The translations under genes were made by a program, and so were the position numbers. From Candidatus Woesearchaeota archaeon (GTDB lineage Archaea > Nanobdellota > Nanobdellia > SCGC-AAA011-G17 > GW2011-AR17), in the NCBI GenBank assembly GCA_964358335.1, contig CAYHOW010000002.1, positions 1-33,948 on the forward strand: a DNA stretch of 33,948 nt, given 5' to 3'. Shown one piece after another: positions 1-22,734 of this stretch. Numbering within the stretch: the stretch's first letter is position 1; every line of letters begins with the position of its first letter. The notes under the pieces were generated by a model, which ran no database searches, was not told where the DNA came from, and worked only from the letters and a program-made list of their open reading frames with translations.

Positions 1-973
1 CATTATCTTTTGCTGTGCATAACAGGATGCCTATAGGCTCATTATCTTCATTTGTGTTAATTTCCTTCTTTACATAGTTAAGGTAGAAGTTCATCTGCCC
101 TGCATCTTCATGCTTGAATTTTGTCGTTTTCAATTCGATGACTACATAGCATCTAAGATAAATATTGTAGAATAATAAGTCGATATAGAAATGCTCATTG
201 TCGATGCTTATCCTTTTCTGCCTGGCGACAAAGCTGAACCCTTGCCCAAGCTCAAGCAGGAACTTCTGGAGATTGTCCAATATCCTGCTTTCCAGCTCCT
301 TTTCTGTATAGATGTTTTTCTCTTCAAGGCTTAGGAAGTCCAATATGTAAGGGTCTTTAATCAAATCCTCCGACCTTGTAGGGATGTTGCCCTTGCGCTC
401 ATATTCAACCAGCGTTTTTTTGTCCTTGCTCATCAATAATCTCTCATAATGGAGGGAATGGATCTGCCTTTTCAGGTCTCTGACGCTTAGGTTTTCGTTG
501 ATTGCGTACTTCTCGAAGTATTCTCTTTTTGCCTTGTCGTCAATCTTTATCAGCTCGCAATAATGCGACCAAGCCAATTTGGGAGACACTGTCTTCCATT
601 TCTGGTGCAATTCGCCAGTCACTGACTGGCGAATCTTGCCTTTATGGAATTCATCAGACAGTGTCTGATGAATCTTATCTGTATAGATTAGATAAAAAAG
701 GCGCATGTTTCTCAAGGCCGTTGAACTGAATCCTCTGCCGAATTCCTTAATCAGTTCCTTAGATATGGAATCTATCAACTGTTTCCCATATCCTGCCCGT
801 TTCTCGCCTTTCTGCTCCTCTTCGACAATTCTCTTGCCTATTTCATAATGTGCCTTGAGCATCTGTGCGTTGACTGCGCTGAACGCCCTGTGTCTAGCTG
901 TGCTGATTATTCTCTTTAGGTCAGAAACTAGATGCGCGAGCCTTTTGGTGTCTGGCATTAAGTCTGATTTCAT
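1..973 (-). CDS. DUF1016/YhcG family PD-(D/E)xK nuclease-domain protein (3' end runs off the window; not in ORF track)
   Basis: Manual translation from ATG at 973: MKSDLMPDTK...HYEIGKRIVEEEQKGEKRAGYGK...GRGFS...LAWSHYCEL...IKDPYILDFL...FLLELGQGFSFVARQKR...FYIDLLFYN...YVVIELK...AGQMNFYL...PIGILLC, all typical YhcG motifs. Confidence 0.93.
   Translation of the reverse strand, partial: MKSDLMPDTKRLAHLVSDLKRIISTARHRAFSAVNAQMLKAHYEIGKRIVEEEQKGEKRAGYGKQLIDSISKELIKEFGRGFSSTALRNMRLFYLIYTDKIHQTLSDEFHKGKIRQSVTGELHQKWKTVSPKLAWSHYCELIKIDDKAKREYFEKYAINENLSVRDLKRQIHSLHYERLLMSKDKKTLVEYERKGNIPTRSEDLIKDPYILDFLSLEEKNIYTEKELESRILDNLQKFLLELGQGFSFVARQKRISIDNEHFYIDLLFYNIYLRCYVVIELKTTKFKHEDAGQMNFYLNYVKKEINTNEDNEPIGILLCTAKDN
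577..673. repeat. Three tandem 25-bp palindromic units inside the DUF1016 gene
   Basis: 649-673 attcatcagaca-g-tgtctgatgaat (12/12 arm symmetry); 610-634 attcgccagtca-c-tgactggcgaat (12/12); 577-601 atttgggagaca-c-tgtcttccattt (9/12). Confidence 0.9.
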
Positions 974-1154
974 TGGATTTTATCATTGGAAGAATGGGTT
1001 AATAAATTGCGATGTAGATTTTTCGGAAGGGCTGCGGCGGGGTCGGAGAATGCAGGGGTTGTAGTCGGAAAAAGCAATATGTTTATATATTGAGAAATGA
1101 ATTTCAATAGGGTTATGGCCACTGATGGGATGGCTATGCGGGAAAGGTGAGGAC

Positions 1155-1574
1155 ATGCTGATAAAAGAAGTGTTTGCTGGATTTTTAAAGGAACAGAAGG
1201 GGAATGTGTCCCTTAAGACTTACAAGGAATATGAGACTGTCATCGGTTTTTTTGGGGACTGCCTTGATGGCTATGCGTGGAATACGTTAGATGATGACAA
1301 GGCCTATGAGGAAGCCCAGCTAAAAAAATTGGCTTTCATGGATATATACGACCACACTTACATTTGGGATAATGTTGGCGAATTTTTGGATTACTTCATC
1401 CCCAGAAAGGTCAATTGGGGCGATACGTTCGTATTAAAGACGTGCCCGAGAGTGGTAAGGGGCCTGCTTAAATGGATGAGGGAAAGGAAGCTGCTGGATA
1501 AGACTGATGAGGAGATAATAGGGGCATGCGAGAACCAGACTTGGGATGATAGCCTAGAGGAGATGGGGTTCTAA
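1155..1574 (+). CDS. Hypothetical helical protein (ORF track start 1125; 1155 preferred)
   Basis: Open frame; aggtgagg SD-like motif just before ATG 1155; tttatata at 1082-1089 upstream. Confidence 0.65.
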   Translation: MLIKEVFAGFLKEQKGNVSLKTYKEYETVIGFFGDCLDGYAWNTLDDDKAYEEAQLKKLAFMDIYDHTYIWDNVGEFLDYFIPRKVNWGDTFVLKTCPRVVRGLLKWMRERKLLDKTDEEIIGACENQTWDDSLEEMGF

Positions 1575-10326: not shown

Positions 10327-10385
10327 ATGCTAAACTCACAAACCAAAATCAAGAATAAGAAGACTTTTAGAGGTGAACTAATATG
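10327..10385 (+). repeat. Spacer A: hsdM 5' stub + hsdS 3'-like stub
   Basis: atgctaaactcacaaaccaaaatcaagaat resembles 14221-14249; followed by aag aag act ttt aga ggt gaa cta (KKTFRGEL). Confidence 0.7.
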
Positions 10386-10640
10386 GGCGAAGAGCACTCC
10401 ATAAAATTATTCGAAAGCAAGAAAGTTAGGGTTCAATGGGTTGAGGAAGATCAAAAGTGGTACTTTTCAATAATAGACGTAATAGCCATACTTACAGATA
10501 GCCCCAATCCAAGGAAGTATTGGAGCGTCCTTAAAACTAGGCTAAAGGCAGAAGGAAGCCAGTTGGCTACAAATTGTAGTCAACTGAAAATGGAGTCCTT
10601 AGATAGAAGATAAGCCAACAAAAAAGAAGGTAAGCTAAAA
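10383..10640 (+). pseudogene. Internally deleted Bro-N gene (5' part plus last ~24 bp)
   Basis: 76-aa ORF (10383-10613) closely similar to the N-terminus of 11577-12455; 10617-10640 matches 11499-11522 at 23/24 nt. Confidence 0.8.
10560..10586. repeat. 27-bp Bro-N palindrome, copy 1
   Basis: cagttggctaca-aat-tgtagtcaactg, 11/12 symmetric. Confidence 0.85.
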
Positions 10641-10686
10641 ATGCCGTACTCAGAAATAAAATCAATAAAAAGGAGGCGAACTCATG
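10641..10686 (+). repeat. Spacer B: degenerate hsdM 5' stub + short hsdS 3'-like stub
   Basis: atgccgtactcagaaataaaatcaa (MPYSEIKS vs MLDSELKS) then ggc gaa ctc atg (GEL). Confidence 0.6.
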
Positions 10687-11520
10687 GATGAAAATAATGC
10701 GCTCGTGGTATTTCAAACCAAAAAGATAAGAAGGGCCTGGCACAATAATGAATGGTATTTCTCTGTTGTTGATGTGGTTGAGGCTCTAACCGACAGCCCA
10801 AGCCCAAGGCAGTATTGGGGCGTATTAAAGGGGAGGGAAAGTCAGTTGTTAACATTTTGTTTACAACTGAAATTGCTTTCGGCAGATGGCAAATATTATG
10901 CTTCAGACTGCGCTAATACCAAGAATATATTTAGGATCATTCAATCTATTCCATCCCCTAAAGCTGAGCCCTTCAAGCAATGGCTGGCCCAAGTGGGTTA
11001 TGAGCGAGTTCAAGAAATAGAAAATCCCGAGTTAGCCACAAAGCGCATGAAAGAGATATATAAGGCAAAAGGCTATTCAGAAGATTGGATTGAGAAAAGA
11101 GTAAGGGGCATAGCTGTAAGGGATGAATTAACCGATGAATGGAAAAAACGAGGAGTACAAGAAGAAAGAGAATTCGCAATCTTAACTGCTGAAATATCTA
11201 AAGCAACATTTGGGATGACTCCTGGCGAATATCAACAGTTCAAGGGATTAAAAAAAGAAAACCTAAGGGACCATATGAACGATTTAGAATTGATATTTTC
11301 CATGCTTGGCGAAAGGGCTACTACAGAGATAGCCAGAACAAAGGATACGCTGGGGTTTGTAGAAAATAAGAATGCCGCCATCAAAGGCGGGAATATTGCA
11401 GGAGAGGCGCGAAATAAACTTGAGGTTGAAACAAAAAGAAAGGTAATTAGCCCTGAAAATTATCTTGATGCTCCAGAAAAAGAGAAAAGAAAGCAAATAA
11501 CAAAAAAGAAGGTAAACTAA
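10684..11520 (+). CDS. Bro-N domain DNA-binding protein (antirepressor-like)
   Basis: FQTKKIRRAW...WYFSVVDVV..LTDS...RIIQSIPSPKAEPFKQWLA...NLRDHM. Confidence 0.88.
   Translation: MDENNALVVFQTKKIRRAWHNNEWYFSVVDVVEALTDSPSPRQYWGVLKGRESQLLTFCLQLKLLSADGKYYASDCANTKNIFRIIQSIPSPKAEPFKQWLAQVGYERVQEIENPELATKRMKEIYKAKGYSEDWIEKRVRGIAVRDELTDEWKKRGVQEEREFAILTAEISKATFGMTPGEYQQFKGLKKENLRDHMNDLELIFSMLGERATTEIARTKDTLGFVENKNAAIKGGNIAGEARNKLEVETKRKVISPENYLDAPEKEKRKQITKKKVN
10843..10869. repeat. 27-bp Bro-N palindrome, copy 2
   Basis: cagttgttaaca-ttt-tgtttacaactg, 11/12 symmetric. Confidence 0.85.
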
Positions 11521-11521
11521 A

Positions 11522-11579
11522 ATGCTAGACTCAGAACTGAAATCAAAAATAAGAAGCCTTTCAAAGGTGAACTAACATG
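11522..11579 (+). repeat. Spacer C: hsdM 5' stub + hsdS 3'-like stub
   Basis: atgctagactcagaactgaaatcaaaaat (MLDSELKSKI, same peptide as the HsdM start) then aag aag cct ttc aaa ggt gaa cta aca tga (KKPFKGELT*). Confidence 0.85.
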
Positions 11580-12455
11580 AACAAAGAGCACTCCATAAAA
11601 TTATTCGAAAACAAAAATGTAAGGGTTGAATGGAACCCAGCAGAGGAAAAGTGGTACTTCTCAATAGTTGACGTAATAGCTATACTTACAGATAGCCCCA
11701 ATCCAAACAATTATTGGAAAGTGCTGAAATTCAGGCTGAAAAATGAGGGAAATGAGTCGGTTACAAAATGTAACCAACTGAAACTGCAGTCATCAGACGG
11801 AAAATTTTATCTCACAGATGTCGGCGATACAGAGCAAATCCTAAGATTAGTGCAGTCAATACCTTCAAAGAAAGCAGAGCCGTTCAAGGCATGGCTGGCG
11901 AAGGTAGGCAACGAGAGGATAAATGAGACGTACGACCCCGAGCTTGCATTCGACAGGGCGATGAAGACATACCTCCAAAAAGGGTATTCAAAAGAGTGGA
12001 TAAACCAGAGATTAAAGACAATTGAAGTAAGGAAAGAGCTTACAGACGAATGGAACAGGGCGGGGATAGAAAAAGACTCAGACTTTGCCATTCTCACTAA
12101 CGAGATCACCAAGGCGTGGTCTGGCAAGACAGTAGCTGAATACAAGCAGCTGAAGAACCTTAAGAAGGAAAATCTCCGGGACAACATGACTAATATGGAG
12201 CTTGTCTTGAATATGCTTGCGGAAGCCACAACATCTGAAATATCAAAGAATGAGAGCCCTTCGCAATTTGAAGAAAGCAGGAATATAGCTATCAGGGGAG
12301 GGACTGTTGCGGGAAACACAAGGAAAGAGATTGAGAGGCAGCTTGGAAAAACCATAATCAGCCCGAAAAACGCAAAAGATAACATGCTGGAATTATCCAA
12401 GGAAGATAAATTGGGTATTGAACATAAGCCCAAAACGAAAAGGAAGGATGACTAA
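11577..12455 (+). CDS. Bro-N domain DNA-binding protein (paralog of 10684-11520)
   Basis: WYFSIVDVIAILTDS...RLVQSIPSKKAEPFKAWLA...NLRDNM. Confidence 0.88.
   Translation: MNKEHSIKLFENKNVRVEWNPAEEKWYFSIVDVIAILTDSPNPNNYWKVLKFRLKNEGNESVTKCNQLKLQSSDGKFYLTDVGDTEQILRLVQSIPSKKAEPFKAWLAKVGNERINETYDPELAFDRAMKTYLQKGYSKEWINQRLKTIEVRKELTDEWNRAGIEKDSDFAILTNEITKAWSGKTVAEYKQLKNLKKENLRDNMTNMELVLNMLAEATTSEISKNESPSQFEESRNIAIRGGTVAGNTRKEIERQLGKTIISPKNAKDNMLELSKEDKLGIEHKPKTKRKDD
11754..11780. repeat. 27-bp Bro-N palindrome, copy 3
   Basis: gagtcggttaca-aaa-tgtaaccaactg, 10/12 symmetric. Confidence 0.8.
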
Positions 12456-12456
12456 A

Positions 12457-12678
12457 ATGCTAGACTCGGAACTGAAATCAAAAATTAACCTGTTCTGGAA
12501 CAAATTCTGGAGCGGTGGAATCTCAAACCCTCTCCATGAGATAGAGCAGATGTCTTATTTGATCTTCATGAAAGGACTAGAAGATGAGGATGTCGCAAGA
12601 GAGCAGAACGCCAAATTAAAGGAGGAAGGTTTTGAGTTGTACGATAAAATCGTACAGCTGAAATTAGTGAGGGCATAG
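12457..12678 (+). pseudogene. Truncated hsdM 5' copy (54 codons) fused in frame to an internal Bro-N fragment
   Basis: 50/54 aa identical to the start of HsdM 14221, then KEEGFELYDKIVQLKL, which aligns with Bro-N KAEGSQLATNCSQLKM / KNEGNESVTKCNQLKL. Confidence 0.85.
12634..12660. repeat. 27-bp Bro-N palindrome, copy 4
   Basis: gagttgtacgat-aaa-atcgtacagctg, 10/12 symmetric. Confidence 0.8.
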
Positions 12679-13877: not shown

Positions 13878-14221
13878 ATATTTTCAAAATAGAATATTAC
13901 TGGCCTGAGGATGAGCATGGCGAGACTTTGCTTGGAAAAGATATAGAGCAAAAGGAATTTGAACAGGACTTGATAAAAGCAAAAGAATTTGCAGAAAGCC
14001 TTATCGGAAAAGAGATTAAAGAGGGAGAATATTTGGGCAAAGGATATAGAATTGATTGCTTGCCGGAATATTATGAGCAAATTATTTGGTTTCTCGTTGA
14101 AAAATTAGGGTATATTAAATGTGGGTTTGATAATAACATTAGTTATAATATAGATGATTCTTATGGTAAAAAGATATCAATAAGCAAATCAGAAAAAAAG
14201 ATCAAAAGGAGTGAAATCTAA
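13874..14221 (+). CDS. Hypothetical protein
   Basis: 115 aa, translationally coupled at both ends. Confidence 0.65.
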   Translation: MNIFKIEYYWPEDEHGETLLGKDIEQKEFEQDLIKAKEFAESLIGKEIKEGEYLGKGYRIDCLPEYYEQIIWFLVEKLGYIKCGFDNNISYNIDDSYGKKISISKSEKKIKRSEI

Positions 14222-21243: not shown

Positions 21244-22734
21244 ATGGCATTATCGACAAAAGACAGGCACAAGCTGAAGAAGTTTATAAGGACTTTGGAG
21301 GCCATAAGGGGAAGGCACACGGAGCTGGTTAGCGTGTACGTCCCTGCCGGATATGACATGAACAAGATAATAGGCCATCTGTCCCAGGAGCAGGGCACCG
21401 CCGAAAATATAAAGGACAAGACCACAAGGACCCATGTCATAGACTCATTGGAGAGGATGATAAGGCACTTGAGGCTGTTCAAGCAGACGCCGAAGAACGG
21501 CTTGGTCGCTTTTTCCGGCGACGCTTCTGACAAGGAAGGCAGGCCCGACATCCAGGTATGGAGCATCGAGCCTCCGGAGCCGATAAACATCAGGCTTTAC
21601 AGGTGCGACCAGACGTTCATACTCGACCATCTTAAATCCATGATGGATGTGAAGGAAGTCTATGGGCTGATAGTCGTCGACAGGAGGGAAGGCAACATAG
21701 GATACCTGAAGGGCACGCAGATACAGGAAGTCGCCTCTATGACTTCCGGCGTCCCCGGCAAGACAAGGGCCGGAGGCCAGTGCATGCATCCCGACACCGC
21801 CGTGACTTTGGCTGACGGCCAGTACGTGAGGATAGCCGAGCTGATGGAAGGCGACGACGTGATGAGCTACGATTTCGCTACCAAAGAGTTCGTGCCTTCT
21901 AAAGTCAAGAAGGTCTGGACGACTACTAAGGACAAGCTTTACACAATCAAGACATTGGAAGACGAGCTGCAGTGCTCGGCCGACCATATGCTATTCCTAT
22001 CTGACGGCATGGAAGTCGCCGCCGAGAATCTCAAGAAGGACATGCTTCTCATAGACGAGAACGGAAATCCGAAGAAAGTTGTTTCTGTGGCTGCCGAAGA
22101 CAGGCATCTTGATTTGGTAGACATAGAGGTGGAGAAGGGCAACTTCATTGCCGAAGGCATTGTCGTCCACAACAGCGCCCAGAGGTTTGCCAGGCTGAGG
22201 CAGGAAGCGGCGAAGGAGTTCTTCAGGAGGATCTCTGAGGTCGCGCAGAAGGAGTTCTTGGGCAAGAAGGAACTGAAGGGGATACTGCTTGGCGGGCCCG
22301 GGCCGACTAAGGAGATATACCTGGCGACAGGCGAGCTGAACAACGAACTGAAATTGAAAATCATAACCATCCAGGACCTTAGCTACACGGGCGAGTTCGG
22401 GCTGAGGGAACTGGTCGAGAAGAGCAGGGAGGCGTTGGCTAAGGAAGCGATAACTGAAGAGAAGGATATAATGGAGAAGTTCTTCAAGGGATTGGCCACA
22501 AGCTCGAACATGGTGGCGTACGGCAAGAAAGAGGTCGAGAAGGCTATGGAGCTGAAGGCTGTCGACTGCTTGCTTCTTTCTGAAGATTTGGATCCTGACT
22601 ATTCCGAGGCTATGGAAGCCAAGGCCGACGACATGGGCACTAAGGTCCAGATAATCTCCGTCGACACGCCTGAAGGCATGCAATTAAGAGATTTGGGTGG
22701 CATCGCCGCGTTCTTAAGGTATCCGCTGGAGTAG
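21244..22734 (+). CDS. prf1: Peptide chain release factor aRF1, intein-containing
   Basis: GRHTELVSVYVP, AENIKD (NIKS-like), YRCD, GGQ/SAQRFARLR, GGPGPTK, LGGIAAFLRY. Confidence 0.96.
   Translation: MALSTKDRHKLKKFIRTLEAIRGRHTELVSVYVPAGYDMNKIIGHLSQEQGTAENIKDKTTRTHVIDSLERMIRHLRLFKQTPKNGLVAFSGDASDKEGRPDIQVWSIEPPEPINIRLYRCDQTFILDHLKSMMDVKEVYGLIVVDRREGNIGYLKGTQIQEVASMTSGVPGKTRAGGQCMHPDTAVTLADGQYVRIAELMEGDDVMSYDFATKEFVPSKVKKVWTTTKDKLYTIKTLEDELQCSADHMLFLSDGMEVAAENLKKDMLLIDENGNPKKVVSVAAEDRHLDLVDIEVEKGNFIAEGIVVHNSAQRFARLRQEAAKEFFRRISEVAQKEFLGKKELKGILLGGPGPTKEIYLATGELNNELKLKIITIQDLSYTGEFGLRELVEKSREALAKEAITEEKDIMEKFFKGLATSSNMVAYGKKEVEKAMELKAVDCLLLSEDLDPDYSEAMEAKADDMGTKVQIISVDTPEGMQLRDLGGIAAFLRYPLE
21781..22173 (+). 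mobile_element. Mini-intein (131 aa, no homing endonuclease) inserted after GGQ
   Basis: Starts C(MHPDT), block B SADH, ends VDIEV...NFIAEGIVVHN followed by S+1; removal restores GGQSAQRF. Confidence 0.93.

Follow-up and report, generated by a model that had tools for sequence, protein, structure and literature searches.

A gene of the DUF1016/YhcG family at the start of contig CAYHOW010000002.1, of which we analyzed a stretch of 33,948 nucleotides (called the window here), carries two perfect palindromes within its coding sequence. These are tandem 39-bp duplicates of a palindrome that is kept at one fixed site in most DUF1016 genes, in Archaea and Bacteria alike. It is the self-complementarity of the DNA that the family keeps, with letters and residues changing together on both arms. 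We favor, at a probability of roughly 0.45, a reading in which the symmetry is kept mutationally by replication template switching, through copying from arm to arm.

Palindromes at one site of DUF1016 genes

The window gene belongs to the family defined by the Pfam domains DUF1016_N and YhcG_C (PF17761 and PF06250, respectively), and both domains scored above their curated cut-offs. DUF1016_N matched residues 19-178 at 5.8e-39 (133.8 bits, cut-off 32.8), and YhcG_C, a PDDEXK nuclease domain that is cut by the window end, matched at 2.6e-50 (170.8 bits, cut-off 32.5). The DUF1016_N match covers 160 residues over 137 profile positions (~23 extra), and as it is longer than the profile, it holds about two 13-residue units in excess. 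No relative of the family profile was found among solved structures.

A preliminary description of this DNA had reported two perfect 25-bp palindromes 39 bp apart, with compensated differences, inside the coding sequence. Direct reading together with an inverted-repeat scan bore this out (Table 1). The arms of the units starting at 610 and 649 are 12 nt each and 100% complementary with 1 nt between them, and among the inverted repeats listed for the window, no others have 100% complementary arms of 12 nt or more. The left arms differ at three positions, every one of which is compensated on the right arm; CTT follows both units, and both are in frame in the minus-strand open reading frame (ORF). 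A third unit, placed earlier at 577, is also real (580-598, KWKTVSPKL), but it is the family's ancestral unit and not the decayed copy that it had been taken for, as relatives carry a perfect palindrome at this canonical unit in the form WETVSPKL.

Table 1. Coordinates of the genes and palindromic units discussed in the text (window positions unless a contig is named)
Feature	Position	Arms	Remarks
DUF1016/YhcG gene, N-terminal 324 codons	2..973		ORF and Pfam; 3' part beyond the window start, on contig C27
Whole unit array	575..688		Minus strand; two 39-bp (13-codon) I-x-Q units, then W-type canonical unit
Ancestral family unit, 9+1+9 with one mismatch	580..598		(K)WKTVSP(KL), directly before AWSHY
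Palindrome unit 2, 12+1+12, perfect	610..634	610-621/623-634 = ATTCGCCAGTCACTGACTGGCGAAT	Encodes IRQSVTGE(L)
Palindrome unit 1 (gene order), 12+1+12, perfect	649..673	649-660/662-673 = ATTCATCAGACAGTGTCTGATGAAT	Encodes IHQTLSDE(F)
Bro-N-type coding palindrome	10561..10585		In shortened Bro-N copy (ORF 10383-10613)
Bro-N-type coding palindrome	10842..10870		In Bro-N gene 10684-11520
Bro-N-type coding palindrome	11755..11779		In Bro-N gene 11577-12455
Orphan Bro-N-type palindrome	12631..12663		End of 73-codon HsdM-N fragment (12457-12678; HsdM_N 3.4e-05)
ORF6N genes (PDC-S05), two to three in-frame units	G000:C27:1609-1635, 1684-1704; G000:C22:1273-1299		LRLQIATSK / RCQIGTL / RCQIGIL

A generalized pattern of the two units, ATTCNNCAGNCANTGNCTGNNGAAT, searched with up to three mismatches, matched only the two unit sites (0.02 expected), and two matches arose in 0 of 100 shuffles. 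Throughout the 1.27-Mb assembly, perfect arms of 12 or more occur at seven loci: three in two DUF1016 paralogues, two in ORF6N genes, and two outside genes. One of the seven belongs to a set of intergenic repeats of a 12-base palindromic motif (G000:C20:4840-4900). A genome scan with 11-nt arms and one mismatch allowed returned 38 loci, against 38 in a shuffled genome, and thus only the long perfect palindromes are informative. A chance origin of the palindromes was ruled out by the pattern shuffles, as well as by the synonymous-codon resamples and covariation shuffles given below.

The assembly also holds a full-length paralogue on contig C15, which is 87% identical to the window gene and matches PADLOC PDC-S02 at 1.2e-131. 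It has one extra 39-bp unit relative to the window gene, and the differences between the two genes include compensated pairs, among them a T:A to A:T change. Among the sequencing runs listed for this sequence, none was of RNA, and in contigs of four DNA runs we found only a paralogue-like variant with 39 extra bases. A structure model of the paralogue gave a predicted local distance difference test score (pLDDT) below 50 for residues 103-141, which match the unit array and lie between confident helices; such a low-confidence model is as would be expected for a tolerant segment.

To place these units in the family, we compared 110 DUF1016 genes, of which 30 came from 40 related small genomes and 80 from Woesearchaeota, Bacteroidota, Nitrospirota, Planctomycetota, Spirochaetes, Patescibacteria, a Pasteurellaceae species, and others. 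The canonical site lies just upstream of an L-S-W-S-H motif and has its center at the first base of the L/V codon that precedes the conserved Trp by six codons. Pairing at this site was 9/9 in 51 genes, 8/9 in 31, and 7 or fewer in 28. The 82 of 110 genes at 8/9 or above compare with 2.6% of synonymous resamples, in which the peptide was kept and codons were drawn by each gene's own usage, and with 1.1% of 3393 windows taken elsewhere in these genes. The canonical site outscored all other windows of its own gene in 72 of the 110. The case named in advance against the preliminary description, that homologous linkers might encode similar peptides without DNA symmetry, is therefore not what these genes present. 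When the whole linker was scanned, at least one unit at 8/9 or above was found in 96 of 109 genes, with a score of 7 in the remaining 13.

A variable-copy segment in these proteins, which the preliminary description had mentioned, does exist: tandem units, 2 to 6 per gene, occur in 18 of 109 DUF1016 genes, and yhcG of E. coli K-12 has three units, two of them at 8/9. A second sample covered four further phyla and an even draw of 150 Gammaproteobacteria genomes. Here, 4 of 41 ORFs were without the anchor motif, 31 of 37 anchored genes reached 8/9 or above, and the canonical site was the best palindrome of the entire ORF in 29 of 41.

The peptide at the site varies between genes (QTVSA, ETLSR, SAVRR, NALRS, APLVR, QPLVA, ARFVQ, and PDASG are all found), as do the arms, which can be wholly different; 60 distinct cores were counted among the units. 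The palindrome center falls in codon phase 0 in 96 of 101 units. The segment had been labeled a linker but is more than that, being the most conserved N-domain motif of the family.

Covariation between the arms, proposed earlier as a check, held up in an alignment anchored independently of the palindrome. Of 152 genes, 146 each contributed a 31-base segment lying at a fixed offset from the conserved Trp (the other six were without the anchor motif), which gave 124 distinct sequences. Over 11 named pairs, 89.4% of 1281 cells were standard pairs, compared with 62.5% when partners were shuffled and 26-39% when partners were slid by one to three columns. Two-sided changes occurred in 10 of the 11 pairs, and the covariation score was reached by 0 of 500 shuffles. 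As these cells count sequences and not events, pair states were also mapped on a tree (FastTree, 138 genes, protein without the linker), with units at the fixed offset but out of register counted as unpaired. The mapping yielded at least 134 switches between Watson-Crick pairs over nine pairs. Since a synonymous site in one arm faces a protein-constrained site in the other, symmetry and peptide together fix nearly every base, and by inference these near-fixed bases explain why IRQTVSGE-type units have identical DNA in distant phyla.

Palindromes outside the DUF1016 family

The preliminary description had suggested that the same phenomenon is seen in Bro-N genes, and more widely in accessory genes associated with restriction-modification (R-M). 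Both suggestions were sustained. Among relatives, 18 of 22 tested Bro-N genes reached 8/9 or above directly before a D-G-K motif (synonymous null 5.9%, other windows 1.6%), after 7 of 29 ORFs without the anchor motif had been left out. For ORF6N, 12 of 13 tested genes of relatives did so before the motif L-P-Y-A-F-T-E (null 4.6%); of 31 ORFs, 18 were not counted, among them several C-terminal fragments. When 100 Bacteroidia genomes were drawn evenly, 25 of 26 anchored ORF6N genes did so, one locus from an unpublished genome being excluded. What DUF1016, ORF6N, and Bro-N have in common is thus the phenomenon and not a common unit: the palindrome itself is separate in each family, though fixed within it. 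All three are single-gene defense candidates in PADLOC, namely PDC-S02 (DUF1016), PDC-S05 (ORF6N), and PDC-S13 (Bro-N). A PLD-type C-domain suspected by eye in the ORF6N protein had no Pfam match.

Copies of the DUF1016 unit itself also stand outside DUF1016 genes. The exact unit-2 pattern, with three free positions, was present in at least 117 metagenome stretches. For 55 of the 80 loci that were fetched, it lay within a DUF1016-like ORF, where 57 of 59 occurrences read I-R-Q and two were in another frame. The remaining 25 had the pattern outside any recognizable DUF1016 ORF. Nine of these orphans sit ~20 bases past the gltD stop codon, as in E. coli K-12, whose two exact sites are yhcG and the one after gltD. 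Others were found in a helicase-AbiEi gap, beside RepB/PIF1, just after an integrase gene, in a pilD-like-coaE gap, 158 bases upstream of a DUF1016 gene, and inside a Cas10 gene, where it is in frame. The orphans consist of the palindrome alone, with no flanking gene homology. Only descent from a DUF1016 unit explains 22 bases of identity outside genes, and the orphans are therefore remnants or copies of such units.

At four of the metagenome loci (L122, L126, L136, and L192), the intergenic DNA among helicase, RepB, and AbiEi genes has a tandem of two unlike DUF1016-type units, of which the second is out of frame with the first; the tandem seems to be all that is left of a DUF1016 gene since lost. 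At three more (L182, L188, and L195, at ~1501-1525), the 25-mer directly follows an integrase gene and borders DNA that looks, by eye, like the 3' end of a tRNA ending in CCA, after which comes a second hairpin. The 25-mer could be an island boundary here. In the Cas10/Cmr2 gene (L175:1501-1525), the DUF1016-type 25-mer is in frame and encodes DIRQALPGEY, whereas a 96%-identical homologue has DVRQALPDDY, such that three of nine palindrome residues differ, against 23 of 524 overall. We considered the Cas10 copy as an insertion and rejected this, the only homologue found being collinear.

Such orphans raise the idea that the 25-39-bp unit is a small mobile or copy-prone element that entered the family and spreads from there. 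Rickettsia palindromic elements (RPEs) and repetitive extragenic palindromic (REP) sequences with their RAYT proteins offer models, in that palindromic DNA can lie in frame in genes and RAYT is a nuclease-type protein tied to a hairpin repeat; the nuclease of DUF1016 proteins might act on its unit as RAYT does on REPs. The exact 25-mer at 25 of 80 fetched loci, the lack of flanking homology around it, the tandem multiplication of units, and the orphan Bro-N units at truncation points of window gene fragments would all suit such an element. However, RPE and REP/RAYT elements are dispersed in many copies and over many unrelated genes of one genome, whereas the DUF1016 unit keeps to one family and a fixed codon with few orphans, and each gene's own arms encode the conserved motif. 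Dispersal within a genome was not found either, the pattern being confined to DUF1016 genes in our assembly and to the two exact sites in E. coli K-12. The Cas10 copy is no insertion relative to the only homologue found. Swapping of gene halves at the palindrome was also rejected, as a maximum chi-square triplet scan of 104 proteins placed 0 of 20 strong mosaic signals within 20 columns of the site; most of the 20 were at alignment ends, where ORFs are truncated. We consider a mobile unit improbable.

How the symmetry may be maintained

Under template switching, our favored reading, the nascent strand would fold back or switch template inside the palindrome during replication, the process known as quasi-palindrome template switching. 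One arm would be copied onto the other, and a change in a single arm would be either erased or passed to the partner arm, while slippage between units would alter their copy number in frame. Quasi-palindrome mutagenesis is known in E. coli and yeast. That template switching is able to make perfect stems and to keep them so is reported in passages of Monttinen and Loytynoja (2022, PMC8794818). The stems described there resemble the present case in that one event makes or repairs perfect arms, giving apparent multi-base compensation without an intermediate, and differ in that they are functional stems of RNA genes, whereas the DUF1016 stem lies in a protein-coding motif.

Several features of the units fit this reading. 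Of 82 distinct units, 85% have a complementary innermost pair. Among the 124 taken at the fixed offset, this pair is A-T in 78, whereas A fills 35% of the equivalent third positions in the rest of the genes. Because complementarity runs up to the center, where a one-base loop cannot close, copying at the DNA level is favored over an mRNA hairpin. The center base is G in 56, C in 42, T in 18, and A in 8, and both even-length variants and a one-codon-shorter variant remain palindromic. Among groups of units with identical arms, the center differs as C versus G in five of seven (small numbers); this swap is what reverse-complementing the palindrome would give, and a point mutation producing it would be a transversion. 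Mismatches within the 12 pairs, leaving aside a fixed A-A at pairs 10-11, were A-C/C-A in 28 cases and G-T/T-G in 19 on the sense strand. They are thus mostly of the kind that one transition makes, with no sense-strand wobble bias. The changes clustered inside the Cas10 palindrome between 96%-identical homologues fit template switching, as do the compensated pairs by which the two 87%-identical paralogues already differ and orphans that keep their symmetry without coding, such as the one after E. coli gltD.

These observations also bear on whether the palindrome works as an RNA hairpin, by way of mRNA stability, 3' end formation, ribosome pausing, or an antisense terminator-like stem with a short T run. 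The units are predicted to fold strongly (RNA -44.3 kcal/mol, z -6.2; DNA z -7.2), and in a simple scan all three scored as terminator-like on the plus (antisense) strand, against 0.5 expected. The mismatches lean toward antisense wobble, 28 versus 19, which is not significant. Yet the T runs after the stems are only 3-4 bases long, pairing is kept at innermost positions that are unpairable in a hairpin, and no preference for G-U on the sense strand was seen. A search of Rfam 15 over window positions 1-1200 met no family's gathering score; the best match had 23.8 bits, where 70 are required. Bacteria and Archaea share the palindrome even though they terminate transcription and degrade RNA with different machineries. 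An RNA role is therefore doubtful, and we give it little credence.

In a stronger competitor, the gene's product, with its DNA-binding N-domain and PD-(D/E)XK nuclease, would recognize the palindrome in cis, either as duplex DNA or as an extruded hairpin, for autoregulation or self-recognition in the manner of BstA-aba, with tandem units adding sites. The palindromes of DUF1016, ORF6N, and Bro-N would then be putative cognate sites of their own proteins: a recognition or immunity site would lie in frame, site and protein would be forced to change together, and tandem units might tune the response or serve sister proteins. We hold this possible, in its general form and as extended to the three families, though clearly less probable than template switching. 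It would account for own palindromes in three unrelated DNA-binding families of R-M-embedded defense candidates, for their position inside the gene's own coding sequence, for conservation at the DNA level at the cost of amino-acid changes, and for the diversity of the arms, whose 60 cores are as one would find in cognate sites. There is also a precedent in passages of Owen et al. (2021, PMC8585504), where a DNA element at the start of a defense gene acts on its own protein with cognate specificity.

Other observations fit own-site recognition less well. Extra cognate copies near promoters or in flanks were found for only 2 of 126 DUF1016 genes, against 0-1 in controls, and both are due to a neighboring paralogue or fragment, a result that we count in favor of template switching. 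The half-site spacing varies (a center of 0, 1, or 2 bases in DUF1016 and of 1, 3, or 5 in ORF6N and Bro-N), a variation hard to reconcile with a dimer bound to duplex DNA, and aba itself, as described in parts of PMC8585504, is non-palindromic and sits at the gene start. An exploratory scan of arm states against residues outside the unit gave one candidate column only (column 80), which was not significant over 2364 tests, with ~10-13 independent pairs per test and hence little power. This column lies in an M-R-[RL]-F-Y motif ~10 residues before the unit, and its Arg tracks palindrome pair 7 in ~8 of 10 independent pairs with 0 in the opposite sense, the two pair states being G:C versus C:G, that is, Trp versus Phe/Cys before Gln. 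The signal may come from a protein-protein contact or from subfamily structure.

Template switching, to which we return as the reading that we favor, has difficulties of its own. Mutation alone does not explain why a palindrome sits at one codon over Archaea and many bacterial phyla, with 96 of 109 genes at 8/9 or above. The bias toward particular families is likewise unexplained, as the genic perfect palindromes of the assembly (five of the seven loci) fall in just two families, and as three families of R-M-embedded defense candidates (PDC-S02, S05, and S13) have one palindrome each. Nor is the segment a free loop, as no motif of the N-domain is more conserved. Finally, the C/G center count is small (5 of 7), and template switching itself would be an event read from sequence and not seen directly. 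What the sequences show is the symmetry, its fixed place, the covariation, the occurrence in Bacteria and Archaea, the tandem expansion, and the orphans outside genes; that template switching is behind it, and that nothing is dedicated to reading it, we infer.

Genomic setting and known systems

The window gene lies at the edge of a type I R-M island encoding HsdR, HsdS, and HsdM, and between the hsd genes are a Schlafen/AlbA_2 ATPase gene, Bro-N genes, and a nucleotidyltransferase gene. The window start shares a 42-base overlap with contig C27, on which the DUF1016 gene continues, and one of the ORF6N genes with palindromic units sits on this abutting contig. DUF1016, ORF6N, and Bro-N palindromes stand side by side in one archaeal R-M island. 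The assembly comprises 161 contigs at 46% G+C. As the nearest DUF1016 relatives are Woesearchaeota/Nanoarchaeota metagenome-assembled genomes, the host is probably a DPANN-type archaeon. Relatives G006, G015, G021, G022, and others, with genomes of 0.8-1.5 Mb, have up to eight DUF1016, nine Bro-N, and six ORF6N matches per genome, a large share for their size. Elsewhere in the window, the aRF1 release-factor gene (21244-22734) holds an intein, with Intein_splicing and Hint matches between eRF1 domains 1 and 2.

Among the Bro-N-type palindromes of the island, the orphan at the end of the HsdM-N fragment encodes a peptide of the same type as that of L274. The shortened Bro-N copy matches the N-terminal part of the second Bro-N gene at 66% identity and ends eight codons past its palindrome. 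In both the Bro-N and the HsdM-N fragment, the break comes directly after the hairpin. The true hsdM gene is at 14221, and its first 29 bases are found again at 11522 and 12457 and, in diverged form, near 10328; each copy of the hsdM start precedes an inserted accessory cassette (Bro-N copies or the nucleotidyltransferase gene). It looks as if cassettes enter at the hsdM 5' end and duplicate that end.

A full-text search of the literature, covering articles without their supplements, found no description of palindromes in DUF1016, YhcG, or ORF6N. Perfect inverted repeats within functional protein-coding sequence, with both arms coding and with DNA symmetry and protein function both kept, are described in passages of a 2019 study (PMC6649704). 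The mitochondrial repeats treated there are many, up to 284 bp long, and scattered over genes of a few mitochondrial genomes, whereas DUF1016 genes have one short palindrome at one homologous codon in Bacteria and Archaea, with covarying arms and tandem expansion. The BstA/aba system, as portrayed in parts of Owen et al. (2021, PMC8585504), is similar in being a defense gene with a DNA-binding N-domain and an element at its own locus that overlaps coding sequence and is specific for its own protein. It differs in that aba is 63 bp long, spans the start codon, has terminal direct repeats, and has a function shown by experiment, whereas the DUF1016 palindrome is known from sequence alone.

Either way, annotation pipelines and RNA-motif searches should expect palindromes within genes of R-M and defense islands. 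If the symmetry is purely mutational, these genes would be a natural case in which a bias of DNA copying dictates the most conserved peptide motif of widespread families, and a warning against taking covariation or a conserved motif as proof of selection on RNA or protein. If the palindromes are instead read by proteins, they would give a first handle on what the defense candidates YhcG/DUF1016, ORF6N, and Bro-N recognize.

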